Part shown: in pieces, positions 3 through 27,588 of the stretch | How positions within the stretch are numbered: the stretch's first letter is position 1 | How the letters are laid out: every line of letters starts with the position of its first letter | DNA from: a virus | Taxonomy: Duplodnaviria; Caudoviricetes | Length of the DNA stretch: 64,000 nt | IMG/VR virus record: IMGVR_UViG_3300032038_000012 | Location: 71,792 to 135,791 of that record | Reading direction: 5' to 3' (one strand) | Made by a program: the position numbers and the translations under genes | The notes under the pieces: model-generated | Database searches by the model: none | What the model was told of the DNA's origin: nothing | What the model saw: only the letters and a program-made list of their open reading frames with translations

Positions 3-1271
3 AGCGGCGATCCGGTTGGTTATATTGCGGCCAAAACACGAGATCATTGGTATATGGTATATGCAGCCGTTTATCACAAAAGTGGTGATGAATTGGGTTA
101 TTATATTTCTGAGCTCACTTATCATGGCAACAATCCAATCAATCCCATAGCTTACATATTGAAAAACTCTGTCCGAAAAGATCGACTTATAGAAGGGGCA
201 AATGTATCCATTGAAGACGATGAAAGCGGTTGGCTAAGAATTAGTGCAAACGAGAACGAAGCTTATGGTACGTGTTCATCAAGCGGAGATGCCAGCGTTA
301 AGGTGGTTAACATTGTTAGGGGAAGTTCTTTGGTCGAAAGCACTGTAGGAAATATATTAAGAGTGAGATTTGATAACGCTCTAACGTGTAATAATCCAAC
401 ATTAAGAGTAGGAAGTGGAACCTTTGATATATATGACCGAGATACTAACAACAAATTGCAGTCGGGCGCTTGGGGTGCAGGAGATATAGTAACTTTCTAT
501 TGGGACGGAAGTGCGGTTAGAGCTATTGCGGGATTGCGCGCAACCACCACTAATTACGGAGAGGCAAAACTTAGCAGCAGTGTTTCTTCAACAAGCACAA
601 CCGAAGCTGCAACCTCAAGCGCTGTTAGACAAGCTTATAATTTAGCAAATGGCAAGCAAGATGCATTAATAAGTGGAACCAACATAAAAACGATAAATAA
701 TGAATCTTTATTAGGTAGCGGAAATATAAATATATCTGGAGGCGGAGGAACTGCCACAGATGTTCAAATTAATGGTACATCAATAACTTCAAACAATGTT
801 GCAAATATAGTAACAGAAGGAACTTATAATGCTAATACAAATAAAATTGCAACAATGACTGATGTATCAAATGCTGTTGCTAGTAAGTTAGATGGTAATT
901 GAAATGCAGATGATAGCAATGGATCTATTGAATGACAAGAAGGAGAAAGTCCAACAGCTAGTAAATTAATCACTAAAGTTGCTTCTAATACAAATAATAA
1001 TTTTAGTCAAACAGAAATAACATCAGATAATATGCTTTTAACTTCTGGAGTTAATGGTGCTCAAATGAATACTTCTATTAATATGACTCCTTATGCTATT
1101 AATATTACTAATCAAACTACTGATGGAAGTATTACTATAGACGCAGACTTAATTACTTTAAATGGAGGAGCACAAATTGCAACTGTTCCAGATACAAATA
1201 ATAGTATTGTAAATAAAAAATATGTAGATGATATTGTTGGAGATATAGAAAGTTTATTAGGAGGAATATAG
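3..1271 (+). CDS. Tail fibre-like virion protein (5' truncated by window; TGA=Trp at 900 and 933)
   Basis: Frame open from base 3. Track ORFs 54..902 and 1032..1271 are in one frame, separated only by two TGAs. Contains ATTTNYGEAKLSSS..AATSSAVRQAYNLA tail-fibre repeat and GTNIKTINNESLLGSGNI module; ends TAG. Confidence 0.8.
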
Positions 1272-1272
1272 T

Positions 1273-2130
1273 ATGAGTATAGCTAGTGAAATTTCAAGAT
1301 TACAAACTGCAAAGACAGATATAAAAACAGCGATTGAAGCAAAAGGAGTTACAGTTCCTAGCTCTGCAAAAATAGATGTTTTTGATGATTATATTGCTCA
1401 AATTCCAACTGGAGGTTCTTATCAAAGCAAAACAGTTTCTCCAACAGAGTCTTCTCAAACCGTGTCTCCTGATAGCGGATATGATGCTTTATCGAGTGTT
1501 ACTGTTAATGCTATCAGTAATACATATGTAGGAAGTGGAATTGCTAGAAAAAGCAGTTCAGATTTAACTGCTTCAAGCGCAACTGTTACAGTACCTGCGG
1601 GTTATTATAGTTCGCAAGCTACAAAGTCTGTTTCAAGTGGTTCTGCAACAGCTCCTGCATCAATTAGTGGTTCAAGTGCTACTGTTAGTACAGGAACTAA
1701 TGCTTTAACTTTAACTAAAACCGTAAGTGTTACGCCTTCAGTTTCTGCTGGGTATGTAAGTGCGGGAACAGCTGGCAACAGTTCAGTAAGTTTAACAGCT
1801 TCTATTGCTACTAAGGCAGCAGCTACTATTACTCCTGGAACTACTAATCAAACAATAGCTTCAGGAACTTATTTAACAGGGACTCAAACAATAAGCGGCG
1901 ATGCCGATCTTGTAGCCGCAAATATTAAAAAAGGCGTTCAAATATTTAATGTAACTGGTTCATATACTTCAGATGCCACAGCCGCAGCAAGCGATATTGT
2001 TAGTGGAGAAACTGCTTATGTTGATGGAAATAAAATAACAGGAAGTTTAGTTATAAATAAATATTATACAGGATCAACAGCACCATCATCTTCTCTTGGT
2101 AGTGATGGTGATATATATTTCCAAAGTTAG
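1273..2130 (+). CDS. Ser/Thr-rich tail fibre-associated virion protein
   Basis: MSIASEISRLQTAK N-terminus, TPGTTNQTIASGTYLTG and NIKKGVQIF motifs, C-terminal GSDGDIYFQ; GGAGG RBS. Confidence 0.7.
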   Translation: MSIASEISRLQTAKTDIKTAIEAKGVTVPSSAKIDVFDDYIAQIPTGGSYQSKTVSPTESSQTVSPDSGYDALSSVTVNAISNTYVGSGIARKSSSDLTASSATVTVPAGYYSSQATKSVSSGSATAPASISGSSATVSTGTNALTLTKTVSVTPSVSAGYVSAGTAGNSSVSLTASIATKAAATITPGTTNQTIASGTYLTGTQTISGDADLVAANIKKGVQIFNVTGSYTSDATAAASDIVSGETAYVDGNKITGSLVINKYYTGSTAPSSSLGSDGDIYFQS

Positions 2131-2142
2131 GAGGACAATTAA

Positions 2143-3489
2143 ATGGCAACAATTAGATTAGTACCTAGTACATATGCAGTTTCAAGCACTTCTTATTTAT
2201 CAGTTGAAAATGCGGCAAATATGTATACTAACACAGATAGCACTACATATGCAACTATTACAAATAAATATGCATCTACTTCTAGTAGATATTTATATAT
2301 AAGAGGTTTTAATTTTAATGATGTTCCTAGCGATGCAATAATTAACTCTTTTACAGTAAAAATTAAAGGATATGAAAGTGGCTTAGCAACAAGCACTTCT
2401 TATGCTCCAAGACTTGCAAATAGGACATCAACTATTTCAAACACTGCAGCAGGAGAAAATTTTGGAACATCAACAAAAACTATAACAGTGCCTACAGGAG
2501 CATTAACTTGGCAACAAATTTCTTCTACTTACGGTAGTAATTTTACTATTGTAGTTTATGTTAGAAGAAGTAGTAGAAATACAACAGGATATTTTTATTG
2601 TTATGGAGCAGAAATTGAAGTTGATTATACAATTCCTACTTATCATACTGTTACATCATCTACTTCTGTTGGAACTATTTCTCCATCCGGAGCAACTTCT
2701 GTTTTAGAGGGCAATGATTATACATTAACAATTAATGCAAGTAATCCTGTAGCGACTGATAATAATGTTGATGTAACTTCTCAATTAGTCCGAATGACAG
2801 GAGGAACTGGTGAATATGTTCCATATAATTTTACTCGTACTGGATTTTCAGTTACAGACATTTCAAATGCTTATACAAATATAGAAAGTTCTACTCGTGC
2901 AACATTATCTCTTTCTGGAAATACAACAGGAACATTATATTTAGGATTAGGTCCAATTAATATTCCATCTAGCGCGACAATTACAGATATAAGTTGTCAA
3001 GCTAGTTTAGCTTTTAGTAGAAATGGTTCTTCTGCAAGTGTAACCGCATCATGTCAATTATATAGTGGTGACACTGCAAAAGGCTCATCTACTTCAGTAG
3101 TATCAAGTGCAACTGATTTAAGCCAAACTACATTCACACTTACTCCGGGGACATGGTCTGCAAGTGAATTAGCAAATGCACAATTTTATTTTACTGCACA
3201 TAATGGAGCATGAGGTACAACTAGATTTTTTTATGTATATGGAGTATCTTTTACTGTTACTTACACAGTAAATGATGAAATTTATATATATACAATTACT
3301 AATGTTGTTGGAGACCATACAATTATAATTTCTCAAGGAGTAACAACTAAAATATATGTAAAAGTAAATAATACATGAGTTCAATTTTCAAAAATATATA
3401 AAAAAATAAATGGTAGTTGGATTGAACAATCTCCTTCAGATTGGGGAACTATATTTGATACAACTGCTAATTATGTAAATAAGGATTAA
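2143..3489 (+). CDS. Beta-rich virion/tail protein, 448 aa (TGA=Trp at 3211, 3376)
   Basis: Reads through two TGAs to TAA at 3487. IYVKVNNT[TGA] parallels the adjacent repeat IYKKINGS[TGG]. Two internally repeated beta-sandwich units. Confidence 0.8.
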
Positions 3490-3503
3490 AAGGAGGAAAA
3501 AAA

Positions 3504-6500
3504 ATGGCAAATTATCCAGTAAAATTATTAAAGGATAAAGATGGGACAGCTTTTATTCCTGTCGTTAATTCAGATTCCATTATTACCCCAGAGGGCGATA
3601 CTCTTAATGATTTACTAGAAGAAAAACAAGATTTATTAACTTCTGGTACTAACATTAAAACAATTAATAATGAATCTTTATTAGGGTCAGGTAATATTTC
3701 AATACAAGGTGGTGGAGATGCAACTGATGTTCAAGTTAATGGAGTTAGTATTACACAAAATAATGTAGCAAACATAGCAACTCAAACAGCATATAATTCA
3801 TTAACAAATAAGATTGCTACAAAAAATGATATTCCTACACAAACTAGTCAATTAACAAACAATAGTGGATATATAACATCATCTGTTGATAATTTAACTA
3901 ATTATACAAAAACAAATGATTTATCAGAAGTAGCGACATCAGGTTCATATGAGGATTTGTCAGATAAACCAACCACTTTAAGCGGATACGGTATTACAGA
4001 TGCAGGAATTTCAAACGGGACAATTACTTTAGGTAGTAATACTATTACACCTTCTACAGTTCAAAATATAAAAGATGGTTCTAGTACAGGTAGTTTAAGA
4101 AGTTCGGGGTCTAGGACTGAAAATGCAAATTATACCATTGGAAGTTATGCTTTTGCAGAAGGTTACAATACAAAAGCATCTGGTGGTAATTCTCATGCGG
4201 AAGGAAATTATACCGAAGCCTCTGGTAATAGTTCTCATACAGAAGGAAGTAATACAAAAGCTATTGGAACGATTTCTCATGCAGAAGGAAATTATACAGA
4301 AGCCTCTGGAAATCAATCTCATGCGGAAGGCTATTATACAATAGCTTCTGGGTCTGATTCACACGCAGAAGGAATTCGTACAGTAGCGAATGGAAACAAT
4401 GGAAGTCATAGCGAAGGATATTATGCAGAAGCTAATGGAAATTATGGGTCTCATGCTGAAGGACGTGATACAAGAGCTATTGGTGATAGTTCACATGCTG
4501 AAGGTAAGGGTGCAGTTGCATCTCAATCTTATTCGCATGCTGAAGGATGAGATACAATAGCAAGTGGAAGGTATTCACATGCGGAGGGTGGTCGCAGAGA
4601 CGGTTATCTTTTTGTAGGAACTGTTGTTTCTGTGGATGCAGAAAATCAAACTTATGAAGTTAGTGGAGTTCCAAAAGAAGCAATAAGTGATAATTTATTT
4701 TATAGTGGAGCTTTTTTCTCAGAAACTAATAATACTGATTCAGACCAAAGGATAGTTTCAGCCACTCGTTCATCTGACACAAATAATGTTACTTTTACAG
4801 TTTCAAGTTTTGACTCTTCTATAGCAGTAGGAGATAGTTTTAGAGTTTTTGCAGGATCAAAAGCAAGTGGAAATTATTCTCATGCTGAAGGAAATAGAGC
4901 TTATGCTATTGGTAATTATTCTCATGCAGAAGGAAATGATACAATTGCAATTGGAACAACTTCTCATGCAGAAGGATTTAATACATTAGCAAGTGGGTAT
5001 TGTTCTCATGCAGGAGGGAATAATACAAAAGCAAATAAAGATTATCAAACTGCAATTGGAAAATACAATAAAAATGTAAATAATGCTTTGCTTGAAGTTG
5101 GAAATGGGACTGCAGATGACTCTCGTTCAAACGCTTTTGTTGTTTATTCAGATGGAAAAGCTGAATTGGGTGCAGATCCAACTTCATCTATGCATGTTGC
5201 AACAAAACAATATGTAGATAATAAAACTAGTAGTCTTGCTTTATCTAATATAAAAGATGGTTCTGCTACAGGTAGTGTTAGAACATCTGAAGCTTCAAGT
5301 GAAGGTTCCTCTTATACTATGGGAAGAGATGCTTTTGCAGAAGGAAATAATACAAAAGCATCTGGTAATAGTTCTCATGCGGAAGGTTCTAATGCAACAG
5401 CAAGTGGGGATTATTCACATACAGAAGGAAACTGGACAACAGCTTCGGGAGGCTCTTCCCATGCAGAGGGGTATAATACAATAGCGAGTGGGAACTATTC
5501 TCATGCTGAAGGATATTATACTCAGGCAAGTGGAAATTATGGAGCTCATGCCGAAGGATCTTCAACAAGAGCTATTGGTAATAGTTCACGTGCTGAAGGA
5601 GAATACACAACAGCTTCTGGGACTTGATCACATGCAGAGGGGTATTGAGCTAGGACAGGTGGAAAAGGATCTCATGCTGAAGGAGGATGGGATTCAAGTA
5701 TACCTTATAATATTGTTGGTACAGTTGTTTCTATAGATACAGAAAATAAAACCTATGAAGTTAGTGGTTTAACTAGGTATGTTACTAATGATAAAAATTA
5801 TGTAGGAGCAATGTATCATAATAGTTCAAATGGTTGTGCTAATAGTTATTATATTACTTCAGAAACTTATAATACAGCTACTAAAAATTTTACTTTTGAA
5901 GTATCATATATAGATTCTTCTATAGTAGTTGGAGGTTCTTTTTATATAAAGATATCTTCCACTGCGCTTGGAGACTTTTCTCACTCAGAGGGAAGAAACA
6001 CTTTTGCACCAGGAACAGGTTCACATGCTGAAGGATGAAATACAATAGCAAGGTATAGTGGTTCACATGCGGAAGGAGATAGTACTTATGCAGGACCTTT
6101 TTCACATGCAGAGGGGTCTTGGACAACCGCAGAAAGCAATGGTTCTCATACCGAAGGATACGATACTTTTACTAAAGGATACGGCGCTCATGCAGAAGGT
6201 TTTGCTGCTAGAGCAATAGGAGATTATTCTCATGCTGAAGGTGGCGGAGATATTGTTACTGGAACTGTAGTTTCTTTAAATTCTACTGATAAAACTTATG
6301 AAATTAGTGGATTAACTAGATATAGTGATAGTAATAATAATTATATAGGTTGTGTTTTTTCTTATCAGGCATCATATGGTTATGGGAATCAGAACAAAAT
6401 AGTTTCGGAAACTTATGATTCTACAACTGGTAATTTTACTTTTACAGTTACAAAATTTGATGAAACTCATTTTAATGTTGGAGATAGTTTTTATATTATA

Positions 6501-6791
6501 ATGGGTTGTACCGCTTGAGGAGACGGTTCTCATGCTAGCGGGTTAGCAACAATAGCGAAAAAGAATTTTCAAACTGTAATTGGAAAACACAATGATAATA
6601 AAAGTGACACTTTATTTGAAATTGGAAATGGAAGTCGTTTTGGTGGTCGTTCTAATGCATTTGAGGTTTATTCAGACGGAAGAGCTATCGTTGGGGCAGA
6701 TCCAACTACTGCAATGGGGGTTGCAACTAAACAATATGTTGATGATGCAATAGCTAGTGCTATTACTACAACTTTGAACGGAGGTTATTAA
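3504..6791 (+). CDS. YadA-head-like (SHAEG repeat) tail fibre/adhesin, 1095 aa (TGA=Trp at 4548, 5625, 5646, 6036, 6516)
   Basis: Track ORFs 3504, 4632 and 5811 share one frame. The 14-aa SHAEGxxTxASGxx repeat register runs unbroken across each TGA. Two RSNAFxVYSDG neck motifs; ends TAA 1 nt before the next ATG. Confidence 0.88.
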
Positions 6792-6792: not shown

Positions 6793-7947
6793 ATGGCAAG
6801 AACAGATACACTTCCTAACTTCTTAACAGATGTAGCTGACGCTATAAGAGAAAAAAAAGGAACAGAAGAAACAATACAAGCAAGTAATTTTGACACAGAA
6901 ATAATTAATTTACCTAGTGGTGGAGCAACACCAAGGGTAGGTTTTACAGTAGATGAGTATGATGAAAATGGCTATGCTACTAGGGTTACACTTCTTGGTA
7001 TGACTAGTGTACCTGCTGGTGCTTTTGCTTCTCAAACTTCTTCTACACCTTCGTTATTAGGAAGAAAGTTACAAAGTATAACTTTACCTAGTGGAATAAC
7101 AAGTATAGAAATGTATGCTTTTCAAAATTGTAATAGTTTAGCTTTAACTAGTTTACCTAGTGGAGTAACAAGTATAGGAAACTATGCTTTTAGTGGGTGT
7201 ACTAATTTAGCTTTAACTAGTTTACCTAGTGGAATGACAAGAATAGATAGCTATGCTTTTTATAATTGCACTAATTTAGCTTTAACTAGTTTACCTAGTG
7301 AAGTAACAAGTATAGGAATGTATGCTTTTAGTGGGTGTACTAATTTAGCTTTAACTAGTTTACCTAGTGGAATAACAAGAATAGACACATATACTTTTCG
7401 AAATTGTACTAATTTAGCTTTAACAAGTTTACCTAGTGGGATAACATATTTAAACAATGGTGCTTTTCAAAATTGTACTAATTTAGCTTTAACTAGTTTG
7501 CCTAGTTCGGTAGGCACTATATCAGCCTCAGCTTTTGAAAATTGTACTAATTTAGCTTTAACTATAATACCTAGTGATTCAAAGGATTTGTATGGAAGTA
7601 GTTTCAAAGGTTGCACAAATTTAAAAAAACTTAGGATCACAAGGGCATCAACAATTACAGGTACTAGCACTTCTAACGGTGCATTTAATGGTTGTACAGG
7701 CTTAAAACAAGTATGGATAGGGACATATTCAACTTCATCTAGTTCTATAACTATAGGTAGATATGCTTTTTATGGTTGTAGTGCTTTAGAAAAAATTTAT
7801 ATAAATCGACCGAGAGCAACTGTAGAAGCTATAGCTAATTACCAATATGCTTTTATGAATGATGAAAGTAAAACAGGAATTATTGTATGTAATGATGATG
7901 AAGGGTTTATTACTCAAGAAGAATTTGATGCATTAGTAATTTCGTAA
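6793..7947 (+). CDS. BspA-like leucine-rich repeat (LRR_5) virion protein
   Basis: About 7 near-identical 23-aa repeats LTSLPSGxTxIxxYAFxxCTNLA; N-terminal LTDVADAIREKKGT..IQASNFDTEI virion-attachment motif. Confidence 0.85.
   Translation: MARTDTLPNFLTDVADAIREKKGTEETIQASNFDTEIINLPSGGATPRVGFTVDEYDENGYATRVTLLGMTSVPAGAFASQTSSTPSLLGRKLQSITLPSGITSIEMYAFQNCNSLALTSLPSGVTSIGNYAFSGCTNLALTSLPSGMTRIDSYAFYNCTNLALTSLPSEVTSIGMYAFSGCTNLALTSLPSGITRIDTYTFRNCTNLALTSLPSGITYLNNGAFQNCTNLALTSLPSSVGTISASAFENCTNLALTIIPSDSKDLYGSSFKGCTNLKKLRITRASTITGTSTSNGAFNGCTGLKQVWIGTYSTSSSSITIGRYAFYGCSALEKIYINRPRATVEAIANYQYAFMNDESKTGIIVCNDDEGFITQEEFDALVIS
7080..7560 (+). repeat. 69-bp coding tandem repeat (LRR units)
   Basis: TGTACTAATTTAGCTTTAACTAGTTTACCTAGTGG recurs every 69 nt, in frame. 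Confidence 0.9.
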
Positions 7948-8504: not shown

Positions 8505-9188
8505 ATGGCTAAAAATACAATGGGATTTAGAGATGCTTACACTCAAACATTAGATATAGATATTTATCCTAAAGGTAATGATGGAGCCGATGGTATATCG
8601 ATAATAGATGTTGCAGTTGATAATAGAAGACATTTAATTTGCACTTTATCTAATGCTGAAGTTATTGATGCTGGAGAGGTCCCTGCACCAGAAGGAACTT
8701 TTGATGTTGAAATTATAAATTCATTACCTGCATCTGGTTCAATATCTACAATGTATTGCGTTCCACTTCCAAGTGAGCAACAAACAACAATTAAAAAATA
8801 TGAAGAATATTTTTATATTAGTAATGCTTGGGAAAAAGTAGGAACAGCTACAATAGATTTAAGCGGTTACTACACTAAAACTGAAGCTGATGCTATTACA
8901 GATGCATTAGATGATAAAATCGATCAAGAAATTGAAGATAGAGAAGCAGCTATTGCCGCGCACACTAATAGTGAAACTATTACTACTGATTTATCTGCAA
9001 AAGAATCTACTTATTATTTATTAGGAACAGAAGATGGTATTGGTAAGGGGACTGGAATTTCACAAGCTAAAACTACTGTTGAAGGTAGTGGTGTAAAATA
9101 TGAAAGTGGTAGTGAACAAGAAAATGGAAAATTATATATAGATGAAGAAAGGGTTACAACTGGATTGTACTTCACAATTTCAGAGTAG
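8505..9188 (+). CDS. Virion structural protein
   Basis: KGNDGADGISIIDV..HLICTLSN and WEKVGTATIDLSGYYTKTE motifs typical of tail fibre connectors. Confidence 0.65.
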   Translation: MAKNTMGFRDAYTQTLDIDIYPKGNDGADGISIIDVAVDNRRHLICTLSNAEVIDAGEVPAPEGTFDVEIINSLPASGSISTMYCVPLPSEQQTTIKKYEEYFYISNAWEKVGTATIDLSGYYTKTEADAITDALDDKIDQEIEDREAAIAAHTNSETITTDLSAKESTYYLLGTEDGIGKGTGISQAKTTVEGSGVKYESGSEQENGKLYIDEERVTTGLYFTISE

Positions 9189-9205: not shown

Positions 9206-11458
9206 ATGTCAAAAACAATTAAATTTTATGAAGACGAATTAAAAACTAAACAAGTTTATCCTGAGATTGATCCTGAAGGAAAATATCCTGGGGTAACAGT
9301 TGGTTTAGCAGAGAACTTAACTTCTATAGATGGAGTTACTGATGGTTCATCATTCCAATATAGATCTGCTGCAAGTCATACAAGTGTGGCAACTGATGGA
9401 TATGCAGTATTAAAGAAATTACATGGAGCTAAATCAACAACTACAACAATTCCAGAAAGTATTAAATATAATTTATTAACTACTGGAGTAAAAAGTATTA
9501 CATTAACTTTAGCAACTTTTAAAACTCAAAAAAGTGAAACTGGAGTTTATAATTTTATTTATACTCCAACAATTACATATACATCAAATTTAATAAGTTC
9601 AATTAATAAAGCTACATTTGCTAGAAAAATGAATGCTGCAACAGGAACTTTTGTATTTGAGTTTGATGCAGCTATTGATTATAATGATCCATCAACAATA
9701 GTATCAAATTTTAATAAAAATACTTTTGCAAATAAAGTTTTAGGAACTGCAAATACATATGAATTTACATATGCAACAGATAATTGGTATTTAGGGACAG
9801 AACAAGTTTCTTTATCTCAATATGGATTTACTTTAAATTCAACAACACTTACAGAAGGAATGAAAATTACAGTTTATTATACTGCTAATAATTGAAAATA
9901 TGGTCAAGATGTAGTTGCATTATACCAATATGGAATTATTACAACAGGAAAAGAAAAACCTGGAAATACTATTACAATTAATTATACTGCAAATAATTGG
10001 ATGTTAGAAGATGATATTGTTACATTATCAAGTTATGGTATTTCTATTACAAATGGAGCTGCCGCAATTAATGATAACATTCAAGTTATATATCAAGCTG
10101 AAGAGGTTGGAGTAGTTCAAATAGCAAATCCAACACATTTATTATCAATAGGAATGAATCAATTCAATAAAAGAGGTAGTCAAATTTTATCTAATAGTGG
10201 GATTGATGGTAATGGAGCTATAGGAACTGTTAATGACCATTATGTTATTTGGTTTAAGTGTTTAGGTGGACAAACTTATACTATTTATGATAAAAACGAA
10301 GGTAGTATAGTTCAAGCTGCATATAGTACTGAACCTATTGCAAGTTATTCAACAGGATTAACGATTTTAACACCTGTAACAACTTCATCAGAAGGAAATG
10401 AAGTAACAACTACAACAACAAAAACTTATTATCAAACAACTAATAATGGTTATATGGCTATTGAAACTACTGATATTGAAGATTTATGTTGTCATTTAAC
10501 CTGGTCTGGGACAGAAGATAATACTTATTCAGATTATTGAGAATTTAAATTAGAAATTCCATATGAAGATAAAAATGGAAATAAGATTTCTACATATGGA
10601 TTACCTCAATTAAATGATAATGTATTTGATGAAATTGATTTAGAAAATAATAAATATTATGTTAGAGTAGGAAGAGTTGAATATACTCCTACAAATTTAT
10701 CTAATATTAGTGCTCAAACTTCTAATTATATATATGATAGTAATTGAATTTATTATAAGGCATCAAAAGAAAGAGTTTATGACTTAAAAGAAAGAGAAGA
10801 TATATATCCTTGTGCGGACTTTGGTACAGAAGAATTTTTAAATAGTGTTTTAGAATTATCCCCTACAATAATTTATCAAAACAATTTAAAAGATAAATTA
10901 AGAAGAGATGTTGAAGTTTTAGCTAATAAAACAAATGACTTATCAGATGTTTATGATTGAAATGCAACAACTATGTATCCAAGTGCAAAAGCTGTAAAAA
11001 CAATAACTAATAATATTTATGCAATGTTAGGTTTAGCTGTAAACACTTATGATAATAGTACTGTTTACTCTGCTGGGGACTATGTTGTATATGATAATAT
11101 ATTATATAAATGCGTAACAAGCTCTAGTTCTGCAGGAGGCTTGACTAGAAAACCATCTGCAGTTATTTGGGATAGTTCTAATGAAGTATTCTCAATTACA
11201 GATGAAACTACTTTACTTAATAGCGATCCTATTCAAGAACATGGTATAGGTGAGTATCAAATAAAATTACAAGCAGATTATCATGATCCAAATCATTCAC
11301 ATTATTTACAAACACTAATATGTCCTGATGGGTATGTTTATGGACCGGAAGAAGGGCTTTTCTTGAATATGGGTATTCAAACCTTAACTAATACTGGTGA
11401 AGGAAGTTTTCAAATTACAGATGGACAATGGACTAGATCTTATTTATTTAAAGCTTAA
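9206..11458 (+). CDS. Tail/baseplate protein, 750 aa (TGA=Trp at 9893, 10538, 10745, 10958), C-terminal CBM-like YSAGDYVVYDNILYKC module
   Basis: Three track ORFs in one frame joined only by TGAs; internal repeats YATDN[TGG], YTANN[TGA], YTANN[TGG]. Confidence 0.85.
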
Positions 11459-11525: not shown

Positions 11526-12359
11526 ATGATTTTAAATATAAAACGATTTGCGCCAGAGTTAGATGAATATAATCCTGAATATAGTTATACCTATACTAAA
11601 AAAGGATATGTTGCAACAGTAGAGGTTTCTATTGAATGTGATTATGATATTTCAAGTATAGAATTAAGTCGAGGAGAAACTTTATTAGGAGATTTAGTTG
11701 ATGTAACTTCTGATTGAACTCTTTATAATGATGGGAGTTCCATTAAAAGAACTTTTACTGAACCTTGTCATGATACTTTTGTTATAAATTTTGAAAACGC
11801 TACTGTAACTGGATATGTTATAGTAAATACATCTGATGACTTTACCCCAGAAAGTGAACAATATCCAGTAGAAATTAATGGAGATATTCGAATTAGTAAT
11901 AGTGAAATTAAATTAAAAAAAGTTGCTGAAACGATTAAAGATTTAACGAATATTATTTATCCTGTTGGAAGTATATATAGAAGTACAAATGCGATAAATC
12001 CACAGAATATTTTTGGCGGAACGTGAACACAAATTACAGATGATACAATTGTTGCTTATGCAGAAATGTCTGGAACAACTTTAAATCAATCAAAAAATAT
12101 TTCTTCCATTACTGGATCTAGTACTTTTATAGTAACTTTTTCTAAAACTATGGCAAATACAAAATACAAGGTTTTTGTATCTGGAGAATGTAGTGGATTA
12201 GGAGCTGAAATTATAGGAGTTTATGGAAAAACAACAACAGGTTTTAAATTTGATTTTTGTAATTATAGTGGGACAGCAACAACTCCTACAAGTCAAAATA
12301 TTTTAGTAATAGGGCAACTTGCTAATCCTGAATATTACGAATGAAAAAGGACAGCATAG
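11526..12359 (+). CDS. Tail-tip protein with IYPVGSIY...WKR domain and LNIKRFA leader, 277 aa (TGA=Trp at 11715, 12024, 12342)
   Basis: FGGT[TGA]TQI matches FNGT[TGG]EQI in the 12817 paralog; YE[TGA]KRTA matches the WKR C-terminal motif. Confidence 0.85.
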
Positions 12360-12370: not shown

Positions 12371-12814
12371 ATGATTATTAATACAGATTTAATTTATCCG
12401 ATAGGAGCAATTTATTTGTCAGTGTCACCTATAAATCCTAAAACTCTTTTTGGTGGAGATTGAGAAGCTATTTCTCAAGGAAGATTTTTACTTGGAGCTG
12501 GTTCTCCTGAAGCGAATACCGCAAATGATTTTGGAGATTTACAAAATTCAGGATATATTTTTCATGTTAATGATAGAGGCGGAGCTTATAAACATACTTT
12601 ATTAACAACTGAAATTCCTGCTCATAAACATCAAATAAAAACAAATAATGATGACTGGAATAATACTCAAAGTGGTGGTAACTATGGTACTACTAAGGAC
12701 GGAACTACCGCTTGGTATAATAATAACTGGTATACAGAGAATACTGGTGGAGGTCAAGCACATAACAATATGCCGCCTTATACAGTAGTTTATATGTGAA
12801 AGAGGGTGGCTTAA
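12371..12814 (+). CDS. Short tail-tip/baseplate Gp10-C-like protein, 147 aa (TGA=Trp at 12461, 12797); missing from ORF track
   Basis: MIINTDLIYPIGAIY..FGGD[TGA]EAISQGRFLLGAG..IPAHKH..HNNMPPYTVVYM[TGA]KRVA. Confidence 0.88.
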
Positions 12815-12816: not shown

Positions 12817-13737
12817 ATGAAAAAATTAAATATGAAAAGATTTGCAACTCCAGATCCGGGTTCAGATACTTTTGAAATAACTGTTCATTATACAGAAAAT
12901 TATAACCAAGCAGGTTATTGTAATAGTGTAACCGTATTAGTAACATCTAGTATAGCTATGGCAAGTGTAGAAAGAAATGGAGTGGATGTTGCAGAAGAAT
13001 GGAACGCAGAATTTCCTACAACTACAATTCAAAAAATTTATACTGAAAACACAACTGAAACCTTAACTTTTTCAAGTAGATATGGTGAAGAAATAACACA
13101 AACTATTGATATTATTTCAATAGATGCTCAAAGTGTTATTGGAGCAGATCCAGCAATAGATGCAAATATAAAAATTAATCCAGATATAAAAATAGAAAAA
13201 TTATCTTTAAAAGAAATAGATGAAACTGTAAGCACTTTGTTTGATTTAATTTACCCTGTTGGCTCTATTTATTATACAAATAATGCTAATTTTAGTCCTA
13301 ATGTAAGTTTTAATGGAACATGGGAACAAATTAAAGATGTATTCTTACTTGCGGCAGGAGATACTTACGTTGGTGGAACTAGCGGCGGAGACACCAACAC
13401 GGGCGCTGCTTCAGGTAATACTGGTGCTGCAACCGGAAATACAGGTTCAACTACCTTAACTGTCGATCAAATACCAGCGCATACCCATAAAGTAAAAAGA
13501 AATAATAATTATTCAAATAATTTCATGATAGATACTGGTAAGACTAATCAATGGGGTAGTGCTATAATAAATACATCAGGATATACGGCACAATCAATGG
13601 GCATTACCATTGAAAATACGGGCGGCAGTAAAGGTCATACACATACACTAAACTCACACACTCACACCTTAAACGATCATACCCACACCAATATGCCCCC
13701 TTATATTGTAGTTTATGTATGGAAGAGGGTGTCGTAA
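12817..13737 (+). CDS. Tail-tip protein (LNMKRFA leader, beta domain, IYPVGSIY...HTH...NMPPY..WKRVS)
   Basis: His-rich HTH tip repeats and Gp10-C-like termini; start moved to ATG 12817, just after the upstream stop. Confidence 0.8.
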   Translation: MKKLNMKRFATPDPGSDTFEITVHYTENYNQAGYCNSVTVLVTSSIAMASVERNGVDVAEEWNAEFPTTTIQKIYTENTTETLTFSSRYGEEITQTIDIISIDAQSVIGADPAIDANIKINPDIKIEKLSLKEIDETVSTLFDLIYPVGSIYYTNNANFSPNVSFNGTWEQIKDVFLLAAGDTYVGGTSGGDTNTGAASGNTGAATGNTGSTTLTVDQIPAHTHKVKRNNNYSNNFMIDTGKTNQWGSAIINTSGYTAQSMGITIENTGGSKGHTHTLNSHTHTLNDHTHTNMPPYIVVYVWKRVS

Positions 13738-14436: not shown

Positions 14437-14883
14437 ATGAAAATTAATGTAGATTTTATTTATCCTATTGGATCTGTTTATATTAGTACTGAATCTATAA
14501 ACCCTTCTGTTTTATTTGGAGGGGTTTGGAAACAGACTGCAAAAAGTAGAGCTATTGTAGGAGCAGGGGCAAATATAGCTAACACAAATACAACTTATGG
14601 TTCTTTATCTGCGGGAACGTTAAATTTTACAGCTGGCACCCTTATGGGAGAATCAACACATACACTATCTATTCAAGAAATACCATCACATTCTCATGAT
14701 TTAACTGTACATTCAGGAGGAACTACAGCAGCTCCTATAGGTGGAGTAGCAAATACCGCAAATGCTTCAGGCAGTGGTCTACTAACAGATGCTAGGTGAA
14801 AAATACAAAATACTGGTGGAGGACAAGCTCATAATAATATAATGCCTATTGAAGTGTATTATATATGGAAGAGGGTGTCGTAG
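14437..14883 (+). CDS. Short Gp10-C-like tail-tip protein, 148 aa (TGA=Trp at 14797)
   Basis: Readthrough restores NTGGGQAHNNIMPIEVYYIWKRVS, matching the 12371 paralog. Confidence 0.85.
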
Positions 14884-15606: not shown

Positions 15607-16119
15607 ATGGGACAACTATTAGCTAAATATACTATTACTGAAATTGTTGTATTTTTAGTTCTTTTAGGATTTGCTATTAAAGAGGTTGTTACTTTTTTTG
15701 ACTGAGCTCATAACAGACTTAGAAAAACTTTTAATAAAGAAGATGAACATGAAGAAATTAAAGAACAATTAGAAACAGTTGTAAATCGTTTAAATGATAT
15801 TGAAACACATTTTAACACAATGATAAACGAAAGTCGAGTAAAATATACTGAAATGCAACAATCAATAGATTTATTAATATCGTCAGACAAGGATGATATT
15901 AAAGCCTGGATAACAGCGCAACATCATTTATTCGTTTATGAATATAAATGTATAGATGATTATAGTTTAGATTGTATTGAGAAAAGATATTCTCATTACA
16001 AAGATGAAGGCGGAAATAGTTTTATTGAATTATTAATGAGCGAAATCCGCGCATTGCCTAAAGTGTCTGTTCTACCAGAGCAGGAAGGAGTAGAGAAAAA
16101 TGTTGAAGATAAAAGATAA
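15607..16119 (+). CDS. Holin-like membrane protein, 170 aa (TGA=Trp at codon 33, 15703)
   Basis: AAGGAG RBS; N-terminal TM (IVVFLVLLGFAI), coiled coil, C-terminal YKDEGGNSF motif; in frame with track ORF 15820. Confidence 0.7.
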
Positions 16120-16659: not shown

Positions 16660-18315
16660 ATGGCAGCAACAAATGCTTTATATCCAGCATTAATAGAAAC
16701 ATATATGCCCGCTTTTTTAATTGACAGTGGAGACACAGAAAAAGATATTTGTAAAGTTTATTTTTCTATATCTCAATATAATAGTATTGGTGATATTGCT
16801 AATGCACAAGTTTCAGTAAGAAATCAAAATACTAATTTATCAGTATTAAATAAAGCACAATATCCTTGTGAAGTTATGGTAACTAATATTTATACAGATG
16901 AAACAGTTACAACTGATTATAAATATTATGTAAAAATTAGAAAAACAGATATGGAAAATAATAACTTTAAAATAGATGAATATTATAAGGTACAAATTAG
17001 ATTTACAGATACTCAGGCTAGTCCTCTTCCTCAAGGAATGACACCTCCGCAAAAGATTGATAGCTGATTAGTTAGCAATTTAGATCATTTTTCAGAATGG
17101 TCAAGTGTTTGTTTAATTAGGGGCATTTCTAAACCAAGTTTAGACTTATTAGATTGGGATCCTGAAGAAACAAGAGATATAGATTGAAGTATTCAAAATA
17201 CTCAAATAAATGGTTCTTTAACTTTTACAGATGCTAATGAAAATGAAACATTAAAAAGTTATAGAATTAAACTATATGATAGTGAAGATAATTTATTAAC
17301 TGATAGCGGAGATATTTTTACAAGTAATTATAACAATGTAAATACTATTAGTTATACTTTTAAATATAATTTTAAAGTAGATACTTCTTATTATTATACT
17401 TTTGAATATACAACTCAAAATCTTTATTCAGAGATTTTTACTTATAATTTTAGAATGATACAAGGAAATACTCAATCTTATAATTTACTTTTAACAGGGT
17501 ATATCCGCCCTGAAGATGGAAATATAGATATTCAAGTTAGAAGAAGTACAGACCAAACCCCAGTATCAGGAAATATTGTTATTAGAAGAAGTTCTAGTAA
17601 AGAGAATTTTACAATATGGGAAGATATTCATACAGAAAGTATTTTAAATGTTCAAGAGGTAGATATTACATGGTCTGATTTTACTGTTGAAAGTGGAGTA
17701 TGGTATAGTTATTGTGCTCAAGTTGTATTACCAGATGGAACAAGAGGTAAAATAACTGAAATTGCAAAACCTGTTATGATTGTTTTAGATGATATATTTC
17801 TAACAACCGCAGAAAGACAATTAAAAGTAAAATTCAATCCATCATTAAGTTCAATTAAAAGAAATATTAATGAAACAAGAACTGATACTATTGGTTCTCA
17901 ATTCCCTTTCATAAAAAGAAATGGAGATATGAACTATGTTTCATTTCCTATTGGAGGACTTATATCTTCAGAGATGGATGAAAATAGAAAATTTACTTCT
18001 AAAACTGAATTGTATGGAGATAATAGAAATTTCTATCAAGAGTATAATGAACAATATGAAATCAATAGACATTCAGATGTAGTATATGAAAGAGCTTTTA
18101 GAGAGGCGGTTATGGATTTCTTATACTCAGGAGAGGTTATGTTATTTAGATCTCCAACTGAAGGAAACTACTTAATTAGAATTATGGATTTAAGTTTCTC
18201 ACCAGAAACTACTTTAGGCAGACGTCTTTGGTCATTTAGCGGAACTGCTTATGAAATAGATTCTTGTTCTATTGACAATTATGATACTTATAAAATTATT
18301 GAAGGAAGATACTAA
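16660..18315 (+). CDS. Virion/baseplate (distal tail-like) protein, 551 aa (TGA=Trp at 17065, 17185)
   Basis: Track ORFs 16660 and 17455 are in frame, interrupted only by TGAs; FSEWSSVCLIR and LFRSPTEGN motifs. Confidence 0.8.
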
Positions 18316-18317: not shown

Positions 18318-21300
18318 ATGAAACGTAATTATGTATATTTAAATGACTCAGATTTTTTAGAAAAAATAAACTCAGATAGACAACAAACCCAATATGTAAA
18401 AATTACATTGTTAGACTGGGAAGAAAATCCTATAGAGGAAATTCAAGGTCTTACTACCGGAGGTTCTATCAATTTGAACGGCGACTCCGCAGTAAGAAGA
18501 ACTTGTAATTTATCAATGTATGTTTACAAAGAAAATTATATGAGGATTACCGATCCAAATAATATGATTTCAATAAATAAAAAAGTTTTTCTTGAGGTGG
18601 GTTTAAAAAATAATACAGATAAATATACTGATTATGATATTATATGGCAACCTCAAGGAATATATGTAATTACAGCATGTGGGACTTCACACAGTACAAG
18701 CGGAATTACGTTAAATCTTAACTTGCAAGACAAGATGTGTTTATTAAATGGTACATGCGGTGGAGTCCTACCCTCATCAATTCAATTTGATAGATATGAT
18801 ACTATTGATGAATCAGGTATGTATGTTACATTAAGACCTACTATTGTTCAAATCATTCGAGAATTAGTAAACCATTGGGGAAATGAACAATTAGGTAAAA
18901 TTATTATAAAAGATATTGATGAAAGAATTAAATGTGCTATGCGTTGGATTGGAGATACTCCTGTTTATGCTTATCATAATGGAAGTCAATATGGTATGAC
19001 AACTAACAAATCAGAAGTTGAAGATTCTGGTGAAATACTAGGAATAAGCGGGAATGGTACATTAACAGGAAATAGTGATTTTACTATTGATGAAAATGGA
19101 GTTCTTGATTATCCTGATGGACTTTATACAGATTCAAATGGAAAAATGAAAGTCGTATCTCATAATTATACAGAATATAATTGGGGTGAAGATGTTGGAT
19201 ATATCTTTACAGACTTCACTTATCCTGGAGATTTAATTGCAAATCCAGGAGATACAATTTGTACTATTTTAGATAAAATAAAAGCTACATTAGGTAATTA
19301 TGAATATTTTTATGATGTAGATGGAAACTTTCATTTTCAAGAAATTAAAAATTATTTAAACATTACTCAAGCAACAACAGACTTAAATAATATGCATAAT
19401 GAACAATATCTAGTAGATATTTCAAAAGGACAAAATGTTTATAACTTTAAAGATAGTACATTATTTACAAACTATTCTAATTCACCAAATTATAGTAATA
19501 TTAAAAATGATTATGTTGTTTGGGGAATTAGAGAAAATACAGAAGGAATTAAAGTTCCTATTCGTTATCATTTAGCTATTGATACTAAACCACAAACAGG
19601 AAATATATATAATGTATTTTTCTACGATGATCCAGATGATGGATTAACAAAAGTTAAAGTTCCTATTGAGTTTGTAGATAAAAGTCATTTCCCAACTAAA
19701 GGTGCAGAAGGATGCTTTTATATGGATAAAGCGTCTAGCATTATTTATAAGTGGGATGGCGAAATAGAAGATTTTGTAATTGTTTCTGGCGGAGAGATCG
19801 AGCCTTATAGCACTAAGAGTGAGTTCCCGCAAACAGGAGAACAAGGTGTTGTATATGTTGATAATTCAACAGCAAAGACATATAATTGGGGATTAGATAA
19901 GACATCAGAGCATTTTAGCAAAGTGCAAGAAGAGTTGGATGGACTTTCTACTACATATTATACCAATTTACAAAGTGTCCATTCAAACATTGAAAATACC
20001 GATGACACTATTAACAGTTTACAAAATTCACTTGTTGAAGTGAACAATACAATTACCCCTATTGAACAAAATATTGCTAAAACTACAAATGAGAAAAATG
20101 AAGCTGAAAGACAAAAACAAAGAAATTTAAATGAGGCGGATGCTCTTCAAGATCAATACGATGAGGATTTAGAACAAAAACCTATCGTTGAGGCGGAGAT
20201 CGCTGACTTGAATGATGAGCTAACCGAGTTAATAGATTTAAATAAGGCAACAGTCAATGGAGAATTAATTGATGTAACAAATGCAGAAAATGCAAATATA
20301 TTATCAATTAAGGTTCATGGTAAAACAACTCAAAGAGCTACTCCATCAATGACTAGACCTATACAAGTATTCCCTTTAACAGGTAGTGTATCTATTACCG
20401 CAAGTACAAGAACAGGGTTAGAAAATACTTTATATTATTATTTAGGAAATGGAAATTTTGCTCTTGCAGATGATTATATTAAAGATGGAATATTAACTAA
20501 TAATTATGGAAAATATACTTTATTAGGATATGAGAACTGGATTGTAACAACTACAACTTCAGACTATATTGAATTTAGTTATGATGCTCCTATTGAAGCT
20601 GGAGTAACTGCTACAACTTATTCAAGTTATTTTCCTAATACAGAAGATTGTAGAATAGATGTAACTGGAACTATGATTTCTGTTAGAGTTCCTAGAAATA
20701 TGAATATTACTACAAAAGAAGAATTTAATGATTGGATTATAAATAGTTTAACTCAATTTGCTATTCCTGTTGATGTTTATTATAAATTAGCTACACCTAA
20801 AGAAACTGAAATAGCTTCAGTAGGAATTTTAAAAACTTATAATCCAGAAACAATTATTTCAAATGACATCTCATCTCAAATAGAATTAACATATATGACT
20901 AACACATATTCACAAGAGATTGCAGATGTTGAAGCTGAATTGAGGACTCAAGAGAAAAAATTAAGAACTATAAATAAAGAAATTGCGGAATTACCTGATA
21001 CTATCCAAACTCACCTAGATATTGCTCAACAATTAACTGGAGATATTATGGTAATGGAACAAAATTTAACTCGTTTAAACAATCAATTAGCGCCACTAGA
21101 AGCTCAAAGAGCTGAAATAGTAGAAGCTATTACCGCCCAAGAAGGTTATAAAGACGATTATATTAATCAAGAAAATGTTCTTACATATGGCTACAATGAA
21201 GATTATGCAGCAATTGCCGCAACTCAATATGAGTATGTAGAAACAAGTTTGATTGCAATGGATAAAGTTCAAACTACAGACTGGCGTTCTGAATTATATC

Positions 21301-21965
21301 TTCAAGGTGCAGCCGCAGAACCTCTAGGAGTTTCAAGTAATTATTACTATCCAGAGTTAGCTGCCGAATGGCCAAAGATATATGATATGAAGAAAAATCA
21401 CTATTTAGATACGCAAGGAAATATTATCTACACAGGTGGATTTAAAGATGAAATATTAGCTAATCCAAGTAATATGGATTATTTCCTAGACTTTATTGAT
21501 TCAGATGCAGCAATTTCTCAATTCAATGTAAATGCCATTGGTAGAAGATCTATGGTAGAAAGTAATGATGGATTTAATTGTGTGTTTGAACCTATTATTC
21601 CTGACTATGTTATTATTGAAAAGGGACAAGGAGAAGATACTAGAAGAAAAAGAGAAGAATGTGAAAAGAAAGGTCAAGCATTTATTCAAGTTGAATCAGC
21701 AATTTTTAATACTTTAGCAACTGGTGGTGCTTCTAACGGATGTTTTGAAGAAGTAAAAATGTTATTATATAATTATACAGGATATAATGAACAAATTAAT
21801 TTAAGTATGATACCATTATATTATTTAGAACCAAATATTAGAATTGGAGTTAGAGATATAGAAGCTGATATTTCAGGTGATTTTATTATTAAAACTATAT
21901 CTTTACCTTTAGCCGTTGGTGGTACAATGTCTGTCTCAGCTACTAGAGCGATTGAAAAGTTATAA
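18318..21965 (+). CDS. Large tail/baseplate hub protein (DUF5048-like) with coiled-coil insert
   Basis: GSINLNGDSAVRRTCNL, YEYFYDVDGNFHFQEIKNYLN and IKNDYVVWG motifs; 1215 aa. Confidence 0.7.
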   Translation: MKRNYVYLNDSDFLEKINSDRQQTQYVKITLLDWEENPIEEIQGLTTGGSINLNGDSAVRRTCNLSMYVYKENYMRITDPNNMISINKKVFLEVGLKNNTDKYTDYDIIWQPQGIYVITACGTSHSTSGITLNLNLQDKMCLLNGTCGGVLPSSIQFDRYDTIDESGMYVTLRPTIVQIIRELVNHWGNEQLGKIIIKDIDERIKCAMRWIGDTPVYAYHNGSQYGMTTNKSEVEDSGEILGISGNGTLTGNSDFTIDENGVLDYPDGLYTDSNGKMKVVSHNYTEYNWGEDVGYIFTDFTYPGDLIANPGDTICTILDKIKATLGNYEYFYDVDGNFHFQEIKNYLNITQATTDLNNMHNEQYLVDISKGQNVYNFKDSTLFTNYSNSPNYSNIKNDYVVWGIRENTEGIKVPIRYHLAIDTKPQTGNIYNVFFYDDPDDGLTKVKVPIEFVDKSHFPTKGAEGCFYMDKASSIIYKWDGEIEDFVIVSGGEIEPYSTKSEFPQTGEQGVVYVDNSTAKTYNWGLDKTSEHFSKVQEELDGLSTTYYTNLQSVHSNIENTDDTINSLQNSLVEVNNTITPIEQNIAKTTNEKNEAERQKQRNLNEADALQDQYDEDLEQKPIVEAEIADLNDELTELIDLNKATVNGELIDVTNAENANILSIKVHGKTTQRATPSMTRPIQVFPLTGSVSITASTRTGLENTLYYYLGNGNFALADDYIKDGILTNNYGKYTLLGYENWIVTTTTSDYIEFSYDAPIEAGVTATTYSSYFPNTEDCRIDVTGTMISVRVPRNMNITTKEEFNDWIINSLTQFAIPVDVYYKLATPKETEIASVGILKTYNPETIISNDISSQIELTYMTNTYSQEIADVEAELRTQEKKLRTINKEIAELPDTIQTHLDIAQQLTGDIMVMEQNLTRLNNQLAPLEAQRAEIVEAITAQEGYKDDYINQENVLTYGYNEDYAAIAATQYEYVETSLIAMDKVQTTDWRSELYLQGAAAEPLGVSSNYYYPELAAEWPKIYDMKKNHYLDTQGNIIYTGGFKDEILANPSNMDYFLDFIDSDAAISQFNVNAIGRRSMVESNDGFNCVFEPIIPDYVIIEKGQGEDTRRKREECEKKGQAFIQVESAIFNTLATGGASNGCFEEVKMLLYNYTGYNEQINLSMIPLYYLEPNIRIGVRDIEADISGDFIIKTISLPLAVGGTMSVSATRAIEKL

Positions 21966-25889: not shown

Positions 25890-25907
25890 GCGTTTCCGCC
25901 TCCTTTA

Positions 25908-26291: not shown

Positions 26292-26302
26292 TGTATCTCT
26301 CC

Positions 26303-26596
26303 TTAAAAACCTAATATTACGCACATAAATTTACTCCAATTAGATTGTTCTTTTTTTAAGATTAAATTTTTACTTCTTTTTCTAAAAATGTGCATTTTAT
26401 ATAAACGGTTATGATACCTCCACTCTTTAATAAAAGTTTCCATTTTTCTATTAACAAAAAACTCTTCAGTTCTTTCAAAAATAGATTCTAGTATCAATTC
26501 CATTTTTTCTTTATTATTTATAATATATGATTTTTCAATTTTTATTTTATCAGGATAGCAAGTTATTTCTATACCCCTAATTTTCATCTGTTCCAT
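26303..26596 (-). CDS. Hypothetical protein
   Basis: AGGAGG RBS. Confidence 0.65.
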   Translation of the reverse strand: MEQMKIRGIEITCYPDKIKIEKSYIINNKEKMELILESIFERTEEFFVNRKMETFIKEWRYHNRLYKMHIFRKRSKNLILKKEQSNWSKFMCVILGF

Positions 26597-26616
26597 ATAT
26601 TATAAACCTCCTTCTA

Positions 26617-27081
26617 TTAATTTTGTTCATCAACTGCGTTGAACACTTCGCAGAAGCCTTCTAAATGATCTAGTTCATGTTGTATAATCGCACTTAACCA
26701 ACCGCCTTGGTCTAACTTTTGTTTTTCTCCATTTTCATCTAAATATTCACAAATAACTTTTTGAGGTCTATTGACAATAGTATATATTCCAGGTGCACTT
26801 AAACAACCTTCTTTAAAAGGTTTTATTCCATTGGCTCCACTTCTTTTCCATGTAATTACAGGATTTATTAAAGTATATTCTTTATTATCATATTTTATAA
26901 CACATACTCTTTTTAACTCTCCAATTTGAACTGCGGAAATCCCAGCTCCTGATGGATCGGAATTTAAAGTATCTTTCATATCTTGTATTAAATCTTTTAT
27001 TTCATCTATATTTTTTACTTCTTCACTTTTTTGTAATAATATATCTTTATCTTGTGGATATTGTAATATTTTTCTTATCAT
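26617..27081 (-). CDS. def: Peptide deformylase
   Basis: All three PDF motifs: GAGISAVQIG, EGCLS, QHELDHLEG. Confidence 0.95.
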   Translation of the reverse strand: MIRKILQYPQDKDILLQKSEEVKNIDEIKDLIQDMKDTLNSDPSGAGISAVQIGELKRVCVIKYDNKEYTLINPVITWKRSGANGIKPFKEGCLSAPGIYTIVNRPQKVICEYLDENGEKQKLDQGGWLSAIIQHELDHLEGFCEVFNAVDEQN

Positions 27082-27108
27082 TTCTTTTCATTCCTTTCAT
27101 ATATATAT

Positions 27109-27137
27109 ATTATATCATTATTTTTAATATTTGTCAA
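27109..27137 (-). promoter_or_regulatory. SigA-type promoter TTGACA-17-TATAAT
   Basis: Perfect consensus upstream of def. Confidence 0.85.
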
Positions 27138-27162
27138 TAAAAAGAAAAAAGATAGACCAAGT

Positions 27163-27588
27163 CTATCTAGTTAACACAAGTCTTTTTTCTTTATATTCTG
27201 GTTTTATGACTTTTATTCCATGACTTGTATACATATCGTCATAGTGGGCTTCAAATCATAATAACATTTCTCTTATTCTTTTTAAGTTTTCAATATTTAC
27301 TTCTCCCCTAAGATTTTCTTCAACCATTTCTTTTGTTATTTCTAAAAAAATTTCTCTATCAACTCTTTCAATGGTATGCAAATAATTATGGGATGTATCT
27401 TGATTTAATATTGCTCCATTTCATTTTACATACCCATCTCCTAAACCTTTTCTTTTACAATCTTTACGAGGAACAATAAGGTGATGAAAACTAAGCTCAT
27501 TGACATTTTTAAATGTGTATCCCATAAAATCATAACCAAGTTTTTTTAATTCATACTCTTTTACCATTTCTTTTGTAACTGCTCTCAA
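27163..27588 (-). CDS. HNH-like protein, 141 aa (TGA=Trp at 27421-23 and 27256-58)
   Basis: AGGAGG plus TTG start; readthrough gives LSFHHLIVPRK..GYVKWNGAILNQDTSHNYLH, ending at TAG 27163. Confidence 0.72.

Follow-up and report, generated by a model that had tools for sequence, protein, structure and literature searches.

The final 64 kb (the window) of the 135.8-kb phage genome IMGVR_UViG_3300032038_000012 carry in-frame TGA codons in a series of tail genes. The explanation favoured here, to which we assign a probability of roughly 0.78 as a whole, is that UGA is translated as tryptophan in some genes of this phage, with a tRNA that the phage itself encodes, on a host that uses the standard genetic code. 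Recoding affects the genes for the tail tip, baseplate and fibres that follow the tape measure, together with one gene for an HNH-like protein and the first gene of the late block. An initial annotation of the window had interpreted the TGA codons as tryptophan confined to virion and lysis genes, and as a gate by which the phage switches the code on late in infection. Tryptophan as the encoded residue, a phage-borne decoder and the avoidance of TGA in early genes were upheld, and a standard-code host is probable; the virion/lysis label and a selected gate were not supported. Positions given below refer to the window unless the genome is named.

In-frame TGA codons and their distribution

All 24 TGA codons of the initial annotation were in frame, and the open reading frames (ORFs) concerned were broken under genetic code 11 and whole under code 4. 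The two positions on the minus strand, 27421 and 27256, are the low ends of the codons 27423-27421 and 27258-27256. The whole genome held 33 in-frame TGAs in 15 genes, of which one (codon 20 of a 1362-aa gene) may precede the true start. Within the window, every gene read through a TGA ended in TAA or TAG, and no gene ended in TGA. Translation of TGA as tryptophan fused the broken ORFs into tail-fibre, baseplate and carbohydrate-binding genes, and matches to Pfam and PHROG families extended across the TGAs. Between 75 and 90 kb of the genome, coding density rose from 0.71-0.80 with translation table 11 to 0.93-0.98 with table 4. It was unchanged in the replication block, where the ORF ends were the same under both codes. 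Standard gene callers break the receptor-binding genes of this phage, and the tail module needs code 4. Many of the sites were reproduced in error-free contigs of three runs from different studies, the sites covered including 9893, 10538, 10745, 12461 and 12797. TGA at 9893, 11715, 12024, 12461, 12797 and 17065 was also common to IMG/VR relatives, which are independent assemblies. The TGAs are therefore not sequencing errors.

The encoded amino acid was identified as tryptophan by paralogs and by homologs. Two of the three paralog pairs on which the initial annotation had relied, VVYM[TGA]KRVA with VVYVWKRVS and FGGT[TGA] with FNGTW, were confirmed. Altogether, 12 TGA sites stood opposite W in paralogs within the genome, including the C-terminal WKRVS motif of Gp10_C proteins. 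Three close relatives, L027, L028 and L029, showed nucleotide identities to the window of 77-96% across the aligned segments and had TGG or TGA at 17 of the 20 aligned sites. At 19 further positions, a TGG of the window corresponded to TGA in L029. In the HNH-like protein, W48 was invariant in 24 homologs, while position 103 was occupied by W, Y, F or L. The TGA of the first late gene corresponds to W293, which was invariant in 15 homologs, and site 3376 was W in nine relatives and TGA in one. Opposite every TGA at a conserved position, W or TGG was found, and a check of the homologs for other residues never returned Ser, selenocysteine (Sec), Gly or Cys at conserved sites.

The record is a single contig of 135,791 bp with direct terminal repeats and a GC content of 30.8%, and is rated complete. 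The runs containing DNA of the phage came from 13 studies and, where the source was named, were mostly bovine gut metagenomes. It is a complete virulent phage of the siphovirus type from the bovine gut, and close-to-identical DNA was not found among GenBank phages. An array of 24 tRNAs, a transfer-messenger RNA (tmRNA) and small genes occupies 0-31 kb of the genome. The late block lies on the plus strand at 31.3-93.8 kb of the genome and starts with the gene for a conserved zinc-ribbon protein, a gene of unknown function and the genes for the large terminase, the portal and a virion structural protein. A 2723-aa tape measure, two giant tail proteins and the lysis region with a CHAP lysin and a LysM endolysin come next, and a long series of fibre, Gp10_C baseplate, leucine-rich-repeat and other tail genes ends the block. 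The replication and nucleotide-metabolism block on the minus strand (22105-59159) was characterised by Pfam matches and codon counts. Its 41 genes include those for NrdD, NrdG, DnaE, helicases, RecJ, DnaB, LigA, GyrA, GyrB, an RNA ligase and glycosyltransferases.

TGA was distributed very unevenly among these blocks. The 41 replication genes held 136 TGG and no TGA, the HNH-like gene being excluded from this count, which agrees with the initial claim that they use TGG throughout. The 16 genes from the one before the terminase to the tape measure held 56 TGG and no TGA. In the tail block downstream of the tape measure, 13 of 29 genes carried TGA, with about 30 TGA and about 135 TGG by per-gene counts; a first computation of 29 and 134 had counted the gene at 12371-12814 one base out of frame. 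Within the tail block, the five genes of the lysis region (CHAP lysin, LysM endolysin and three neighbours) held 28 TGG and no TGA. Fisher tests of block against block gave p = 7e-9 for the tail versus the replication block, p = 1.4e-4 for the tail block versus the block up to the tape measure and p = 0.003 for the lysis region versus the rest of the tail block; the distribution is thus not a matter of chance. Outside the tail block, only two genes contained TGA, the first late-block gene with a single codon and the HNH-like gene. The label 'virion/lysis' was therefore too broad, as recoding is limited to the module for the tail tip and receptor binding and to two outliers, and the terminase, portal, virion structural protein and tape measure belong to the block without TGA. 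A lysis role had also been ascribed to the minus-strand gene at 27163-27564, which instead encodes the conserved HNH-like protein between NrdG and peptide deformylase.

The decoder tRNA and the host

The phage has its own UGA decoder, a single tRNA with the anticodon UCA at genome positions 8971-9066, outside the window. It lies four bases upstream of a tRNA-Trp(CCA), with which it shares the acceptor stem, the D arm, the anticodon stem, the A1-U72 pair and G73. Judged by these common features, tRNA(UCA) is a paralog of the adjoining tRNA-Trp(CCA). It is 96 nt long, scored 61.6 bits as an ordinary tRNA and not as a tRNA-Sec, and showed a 7/5 acceptor/T-stem geometry. An insertion of 21 nt forms an extra hairpin of 5 bp with the loop CUCCAAA, a replica of the anticodon loop for Trp. 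Eighteen more tRNAs built in this way were retrieved from IMG/VR by a pattern search. The extra stem was 100% paired in 16 aligned tRNAs (14 distinct sequences), with compensatory changes at two pairs. CCA is the main identity element for tryptophanyl-tRNA synthetase (TrpRS), and the extra hairpin is plausibly a handle that keeps recognition by this enzyme. If so, the tRNA would be a compact natural design for opal suppression. A two-armed tRNA(UCA) with a spare CCA hairpin was not found described in the literature searched, and it is the component of most interest in this system. The phage genome yielded no protein with an RF-1 domain and no TrpRS.

The tRNA(UCA) is situated in the tRNA array beside early-type small genes. 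A scan for sigma-70-type promoters upstream of it returned 36 sites against about 23 expected in AT-rich DNA and was not informative. A candidate late-promoter motif, TATTTTTAGAA, had four exact intergenic copies in the late block and was dropped, as these are too few to time the suppressor tRNA. No hepatitis delta virus-like or theta ribozyme adjoining the tRNAs was detected with Rfam 15 at E <= 0.05, a library that possibly lacks the family.

Other RNA features of the genome were noted as well. A 69-nt tRNA of unknown type at genome positions 693-761 (locus L001, outside the window) was given the four-base anticodon 'gaaa' by ARAGORN and matched the Rfam tRNA model with 50.9 bits. Within the terminal repeat, a tRNA-like gene at 63896-63984 (= L001:23-111) reached 45.6 bits with the same model. 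It has good acceptor, D and T arms around a 39-nt middle part without a normal anticodon arm, and ARAGORN made no call. A 337-nt match to ornate large extremophilic (OLE) RNA lies inside the tRNA array at genome positions 5822-6158 (plus strand, L001, outside the window), with 109 bits at a gathering score of 50; it is far shorter than the 616-position model. OLE RNAs are a feature of Firmicutes, and a phage-borne copy seems unusual.

The host is probably a walled, small-genome member of the Bacilli with the standard code that retains release factor 2 (RF2), as suggested by lysin homology and the tmRNA. The nearest cellular homologs of the endolysin were found in metagenome-assembled genomes (MAGs) of small-genome Bacilli/'Tenericutes'. 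All five of the MAGs tested encode RF2 as well as RF1, RF2 scoring above the curated cut-off, and in four of them the tmRNA tag takes the form GN...AFA. The tag predicted for the phage tmRNA (genome 987-1411, L001, outside the window), GNLFTKISNKVKSLFAFNCVAFA, has this form as well. An early gene with an HEVGH motif at genome positions 13552-13998 ends in TGA exactly where its homologs end, and this is the only good TGA stop codon in the genome.

Recoded genes and their neighbours

The recoded tail genes of the window all lie on the plus strand. The first, at 3-1271, is the 3' part of a 698-aa tail-fibre gene (genome 70966-73062) with a Phage_fiber_2 repeat and matches to tail-fibre PHROGs. 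Its TGAs at 900 and 933 fall in a poorly conserved stretch where homologs are uninformative on the residue. The 448-aa tail protein at 2143-3489, characterised by homolog alignment, contains the sites 3211 and 3376. At 3504-6791, a 1095-aa repeat-rich fibre protein with a YadA-head-like repeat has five TGAs (4548, 5625, 5646, 6036 and 6516) and three TGGs, and is one ORF only in code 4. It matched phrog_25468 with 4e-86 over seven stretches, in addition to YadA_head. Amid these tail-fibre genes, 6793-7947 encodes a BspA-type leucine-rich-repeat protein (LRR_5, 2e-56). The 750-aa protein at 9206-11458 carries TGA at 9893, 10538, 10745 and 10958; L028 and L029 have TGG or TGA at the first three of these, and the sites are covered by error-free contigs of other runs. 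A match to the carbohydrate-binding module CBM_5_12 in this protein reached 24.0 bits and was thus under the Pfam cut-off of 26.2 bits.

Several of the recoded genes encode Gp10_C proteins. The 277-aa baseplate or fibre-tip protein at 11526-12359 (Gp10_C, 1e-9) has TGA at 11715, 12024 and 12342 and no TGG at all; L028 shows TGA, TGA and TGG at these sites. Its C-terminus, ...YYE[TGA]KRTA, parallels the paralog ends WKRVS and WKRVA. A short Gp10_C partner protein at 12371-12814 starts with ATG 12371 behind a GGGGGT ribosome-binding site and contains TGA at 12461 and 12797. Its Gp10_C match (5e-26) spans both sites, each of which stands opposite W in two paralogs and is TGA in L029 and TGG in L028. 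ATGA and GTGA at 12341 and 12796 were considered as stop/start overlaps and rejected, as the residues after the TGA complete the conserved WKR(V/T)(S/A) C-terminus. A third, 148-aa Gp10_C protein (14437-14883, 2e-23) has its TGA at 14797, where L027 has TGG and L028 TTT.

Towards the end of the late block, 15607-16119 encodes a 170-aa protein that has a single membrane helix at the N-terminus and also a long charged helix. Its TGA at 15703 (W33) is TGG in all three close relatives. It may be the counterpart of the recoded membrane protein in the Agate phages of Borges et al. (bioRxiv 10.1101/2021.08.26.457843; Nature Microbiology 2022). The 551-aa late protein of unknown function at 16660-18315 (phrog_30026) has TGA at 17065 and 17185, and relatives of 91-94% protein identity have TGG or TGA there. 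The final gene of the late block (18318-21965, plus strand) encodes 1215 aa with 12 TGG and no TGA. Between 9000 and 18000, contigs of four runs showed many strain variants, joints and loose ends in fibre genes, and the identity of relatives was 77-83% within 12.7-16 kb versus 93-96% on both flanks. The region looks like a recombination hot spot of receptor-binding genes. Upstream of the window, a 340-aa protein of the lysis region (genome 65956-66978) weakly matches Hint/intein-type autoprocessing domains with its C-terminus.

Two outliers complete the recoded set. The HNH-like gene on the minus strand (27163-27564) encodes a conserved protein of 133 aa, with W48 at codon 27423-27421 and W103 at 27258-27256, and is located between the genes for NrdG and peptide deformylase. 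The protein matched nothing in Pfam or PHROGs, and the HNH label is based on its motif LSFHHLIVP...WNGA...H..YLH. Rfam gave no match to a group I intron around the gene at E <= 1, which gives no ground to equate it with the intron endonuclease described in the Agate paper. The first late-block gene (genome 31344-32456, L002:11344-12456) encodes a highly conserved protein of 370 aa with a C-terminal zinc ribbon of four cysteines. Its PHROG label is 'sigma factor', and no Pfam sigma domain was found in it. A consensus promoter, TTGACA-17-TGATAAAAT, precedes this gene, and the final 78 residues of the protein, from the one TGA at W293, need suppression.

Explanations of the pattern and known recoding systems

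The favoured explanation would operate as follows. The host TrpRS would charge the phage tRNA(UCA), probably aided by the hairpin with the CCA loop, and the charged tRNA, once accumulated, would outcompete RF2. TGA would be excluded from the replication genes, whose translation would have to precede efficient suppression or do without it, and, in this genome, from the head, tape-measure and lysin genes as well. The last-made, low-copy and fast-evolving tail-tip genes would tolerate AT-driven TGG-to-TGA transitions, which would pile up there. As a physical consequence of the TGAs, full-length tail-tip proteins, and hence infectious particles, would depend on the suppressor, and lysis would be independent of it. 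This dependency may be a selected timer or a by-product; the data give no sign of tuning, and the timing of lysis in this phage cannot hang on it. Several points weigh against this account. The link to the host is indirect, drawn from lysin identities of 37-59% and the style of the tmRNA tag, and the cause of the TGA-free head and tape-measure genes is only a guess. The base at position +4 showed no bias after TGA versus TGG, with no sign of selected leaky termination contexts. The invariance of the CUCCAAA loop among the related tRNAs was imposed by the search pattern, which leaves the covariation of the stem as the only independent evidence for the extra arm. The sites 900, 933 and 3211 are at non-conserved positions, where tryptophan is assigned from the single decoder.

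If the host itself used code 4, the phage would merely follow its host and no switch would be involved. The nearest lysin homologs do include MAGs labelled Tenericutes, the phage tmRNA tag has the Mollicutes-like ending AFA, and TGA is nearly absent as a stop codon. A phage of such a host would use TGA for tryptophan genome-wide, yet TGG accounts for all 192 Trp codons in the replication block and in the block that ends with the tape measure, although Lys, Glu and Gln codons, which are comparable two-fold sites, end in A in 85-93% of cases in every gene set. This makes a code-4 host very unlikely, as the initial annotation had argued, and the phage-borne tRNA(UCA), the early gene with its TGA stop, RF2 in five of five candidate host-lineage genomes and the peptidoglycan hydrolases of the phage also speak against it. 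Import of the tail module from a code-4 source was rejected as well, as its codon usage equals that of the rest of the genome and relatives have TGG at the same sites. Still less credible is that TGA stands for Ser or Sec, through a tRNA with a long variable arm and seryl-tRNA synthetase, or for Gly as in code 25, or that the TGAs are real stops which leave split genes or pseudogenes. ARAGORN labels tRNA(UCA) 'SeC' owing to its long extra arm, and G73 together with a long arm is also a feature of tRNA-Ser. However, the conserved sites align to W and never to S, G or C, and TGG and TGA interchange freely between relatives' sequences that are 80-96% identical. The tRNA itself has neither the 8/5 nor the 9/4 geometry of tRNA-Sec, but the A1-U72 pair, a Trp-like body and a generic-tRNA score. 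Real stops are contradicted by the family matches that cross the TGAs and by conserved C-terminal motifs that lie after them.

A selected regulatory gate, in which virion and lysis proteins are blocked until a late switch to TGA as tryptophan, is the more serious alternative, and we consider it doubtful. Replication genes without TGA and tail genes with it are sharply separated, and TGA occupies an invariant Trp position in the first late gene and in the HNH-like gene within the early block. For Agate phages, Borges et al. also report that an endonuclease, a tail protein and a membrane protein show a statistically significant preference for TGA. Against a gate, the counts for the lysis region (0 TGA, 28 TGG) and for the block with the terminase, portal, virion structural protein and tape measure (0 TGA, 56 TGG) mean that lysis and head assembly are not gated here. 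The suppressor tRNA, moreover, lies near early-type small genes. Only 6 of 20 aligned TGA sites were shared with any close relative, and most TGA/TGG differences were single G/A changes on terminal branches. The recoded gene set also differs between close relatives, since the 1215-aa gene without TGA has an ortholog in L029 with nine TGA and three TGG, and the site in the membrane protein is TGG in three relatives. In homologous late genes, TGA made up about 3% of the Trp codons in L028 and about 50% in L029, compared with about 18% in the whole tail block of this phage. More distant homologous tail regions ranged from 0% in L079 to 80% in L081. Such rapid turnover of sites together with the range of 0-80% points to accumulation rather than to fixed regulatory sites. 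The tRNA-array loci of other phages (L005-L026) were too distant for orthologs of early genes.

Compared with a tuned gate, progressive accumulation of TGA where it is tolerated thus appears to fit the sequence pattern at least as well. The pattern looks like an ongoing TGG-to-TGA accumulation under AT pressure wherever suppression works reliably, combined with strong selection that keeps TGA out of early genes. A more far-reaching version, which we put forward tentatively and hold to be possible but not probable, is that the code change is a gene-by-gene take-over that starts in the tail-fibre genes and not a lysis clock. It would be enabled by the two-armed tRNA(UCA), which would present a CCA loop to the host TrpRS, and neither a phage synthetase nor a phage release factor would be needed. 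If this were true, the relatives with 0-80% TGA would form a natural time series of a genetic-code change.

Among known systems, code 4 of the Mycoplasmatales and Entomoplasmatales and their phages likewise reads UGA as Trp via a tRNA-Trp with the anticodon UCA. In these organisms, TGA is the main Trp codon genome-wide, RF2 is lost and a cell wall is absent. In this phage, in contrast, only about 8% of the Trp codons are TGA. These codons are confined to one module, their decoder is encoded by the phage, and RF2 is retained in the candidate hosts. The phAss-1/'Phassvirus' group of the human gut (Babkin et al. 2023, PMC10607447) reads TAG as Gln in 41 ORFs. It is similar in genome size (about 136 kb), siphovirus type, the giant tape measure and many tRNAs including suppressors, and it is related to Enterococcus phage EF1-like genomes. 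Protein likeness is distant, with 34% identity over 53% of the 1215-aa protein. The TAG recoding of phAss-1 includes the terminase, portal and tape measure, whereas the TGA-to-Trp recoding described here spares those genes.

The closest system is that of the TGA-recoded 'Agate' phages of animal guts, for which Borges et al. described standard-code replication genes, recoded tail genes and a recoded endonuclease in an early gene, as well as a near loss of TGA stops and relatives of >90% average nucleotide identity that differ in code. The phenomenon observed here is real and was already published in 2021-2022 for the same kind of phage, so that the initial annotation represents a correct rediscovery. 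The likeness, compared by published description, is one of size, habitat, code and gene pattern. It comprises a genome of about 127-135 kb with low GC and a GC skew of two oppositely skewed arms, TGA read as Trp by a phage suppressor tRNA, and standard-code replication genes beside recoded tail genes and a recoded endonuclease-like gene within the early block. The near loss of the TGA stop and close relatives with very different degrees of recoding are also common to both. In contrast to the Agate description, the endonuclease-like gene recoded here stands alone between nrdG and def, and TGA is missing from the lysins and from the stretch that begins with the gene before the terminase and ends with the tape measure. 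The published emphasis on lysis control is thus not applicable, and a test for lysis gating, which looked for a preference of lysis genes for the recoded stop, failed with no TGA in the lysis region. What sets this genome apart is that its lysins and head genes are cleanly excluded from recoding. Borges et al. propose a model of late-gene regulation. Lysins and head genes that are not recoded and relatives that differ in TGA sites and genes are a caveat to that model, and the 'late-gene timer' is therefore to be weighed against simple accumulation.

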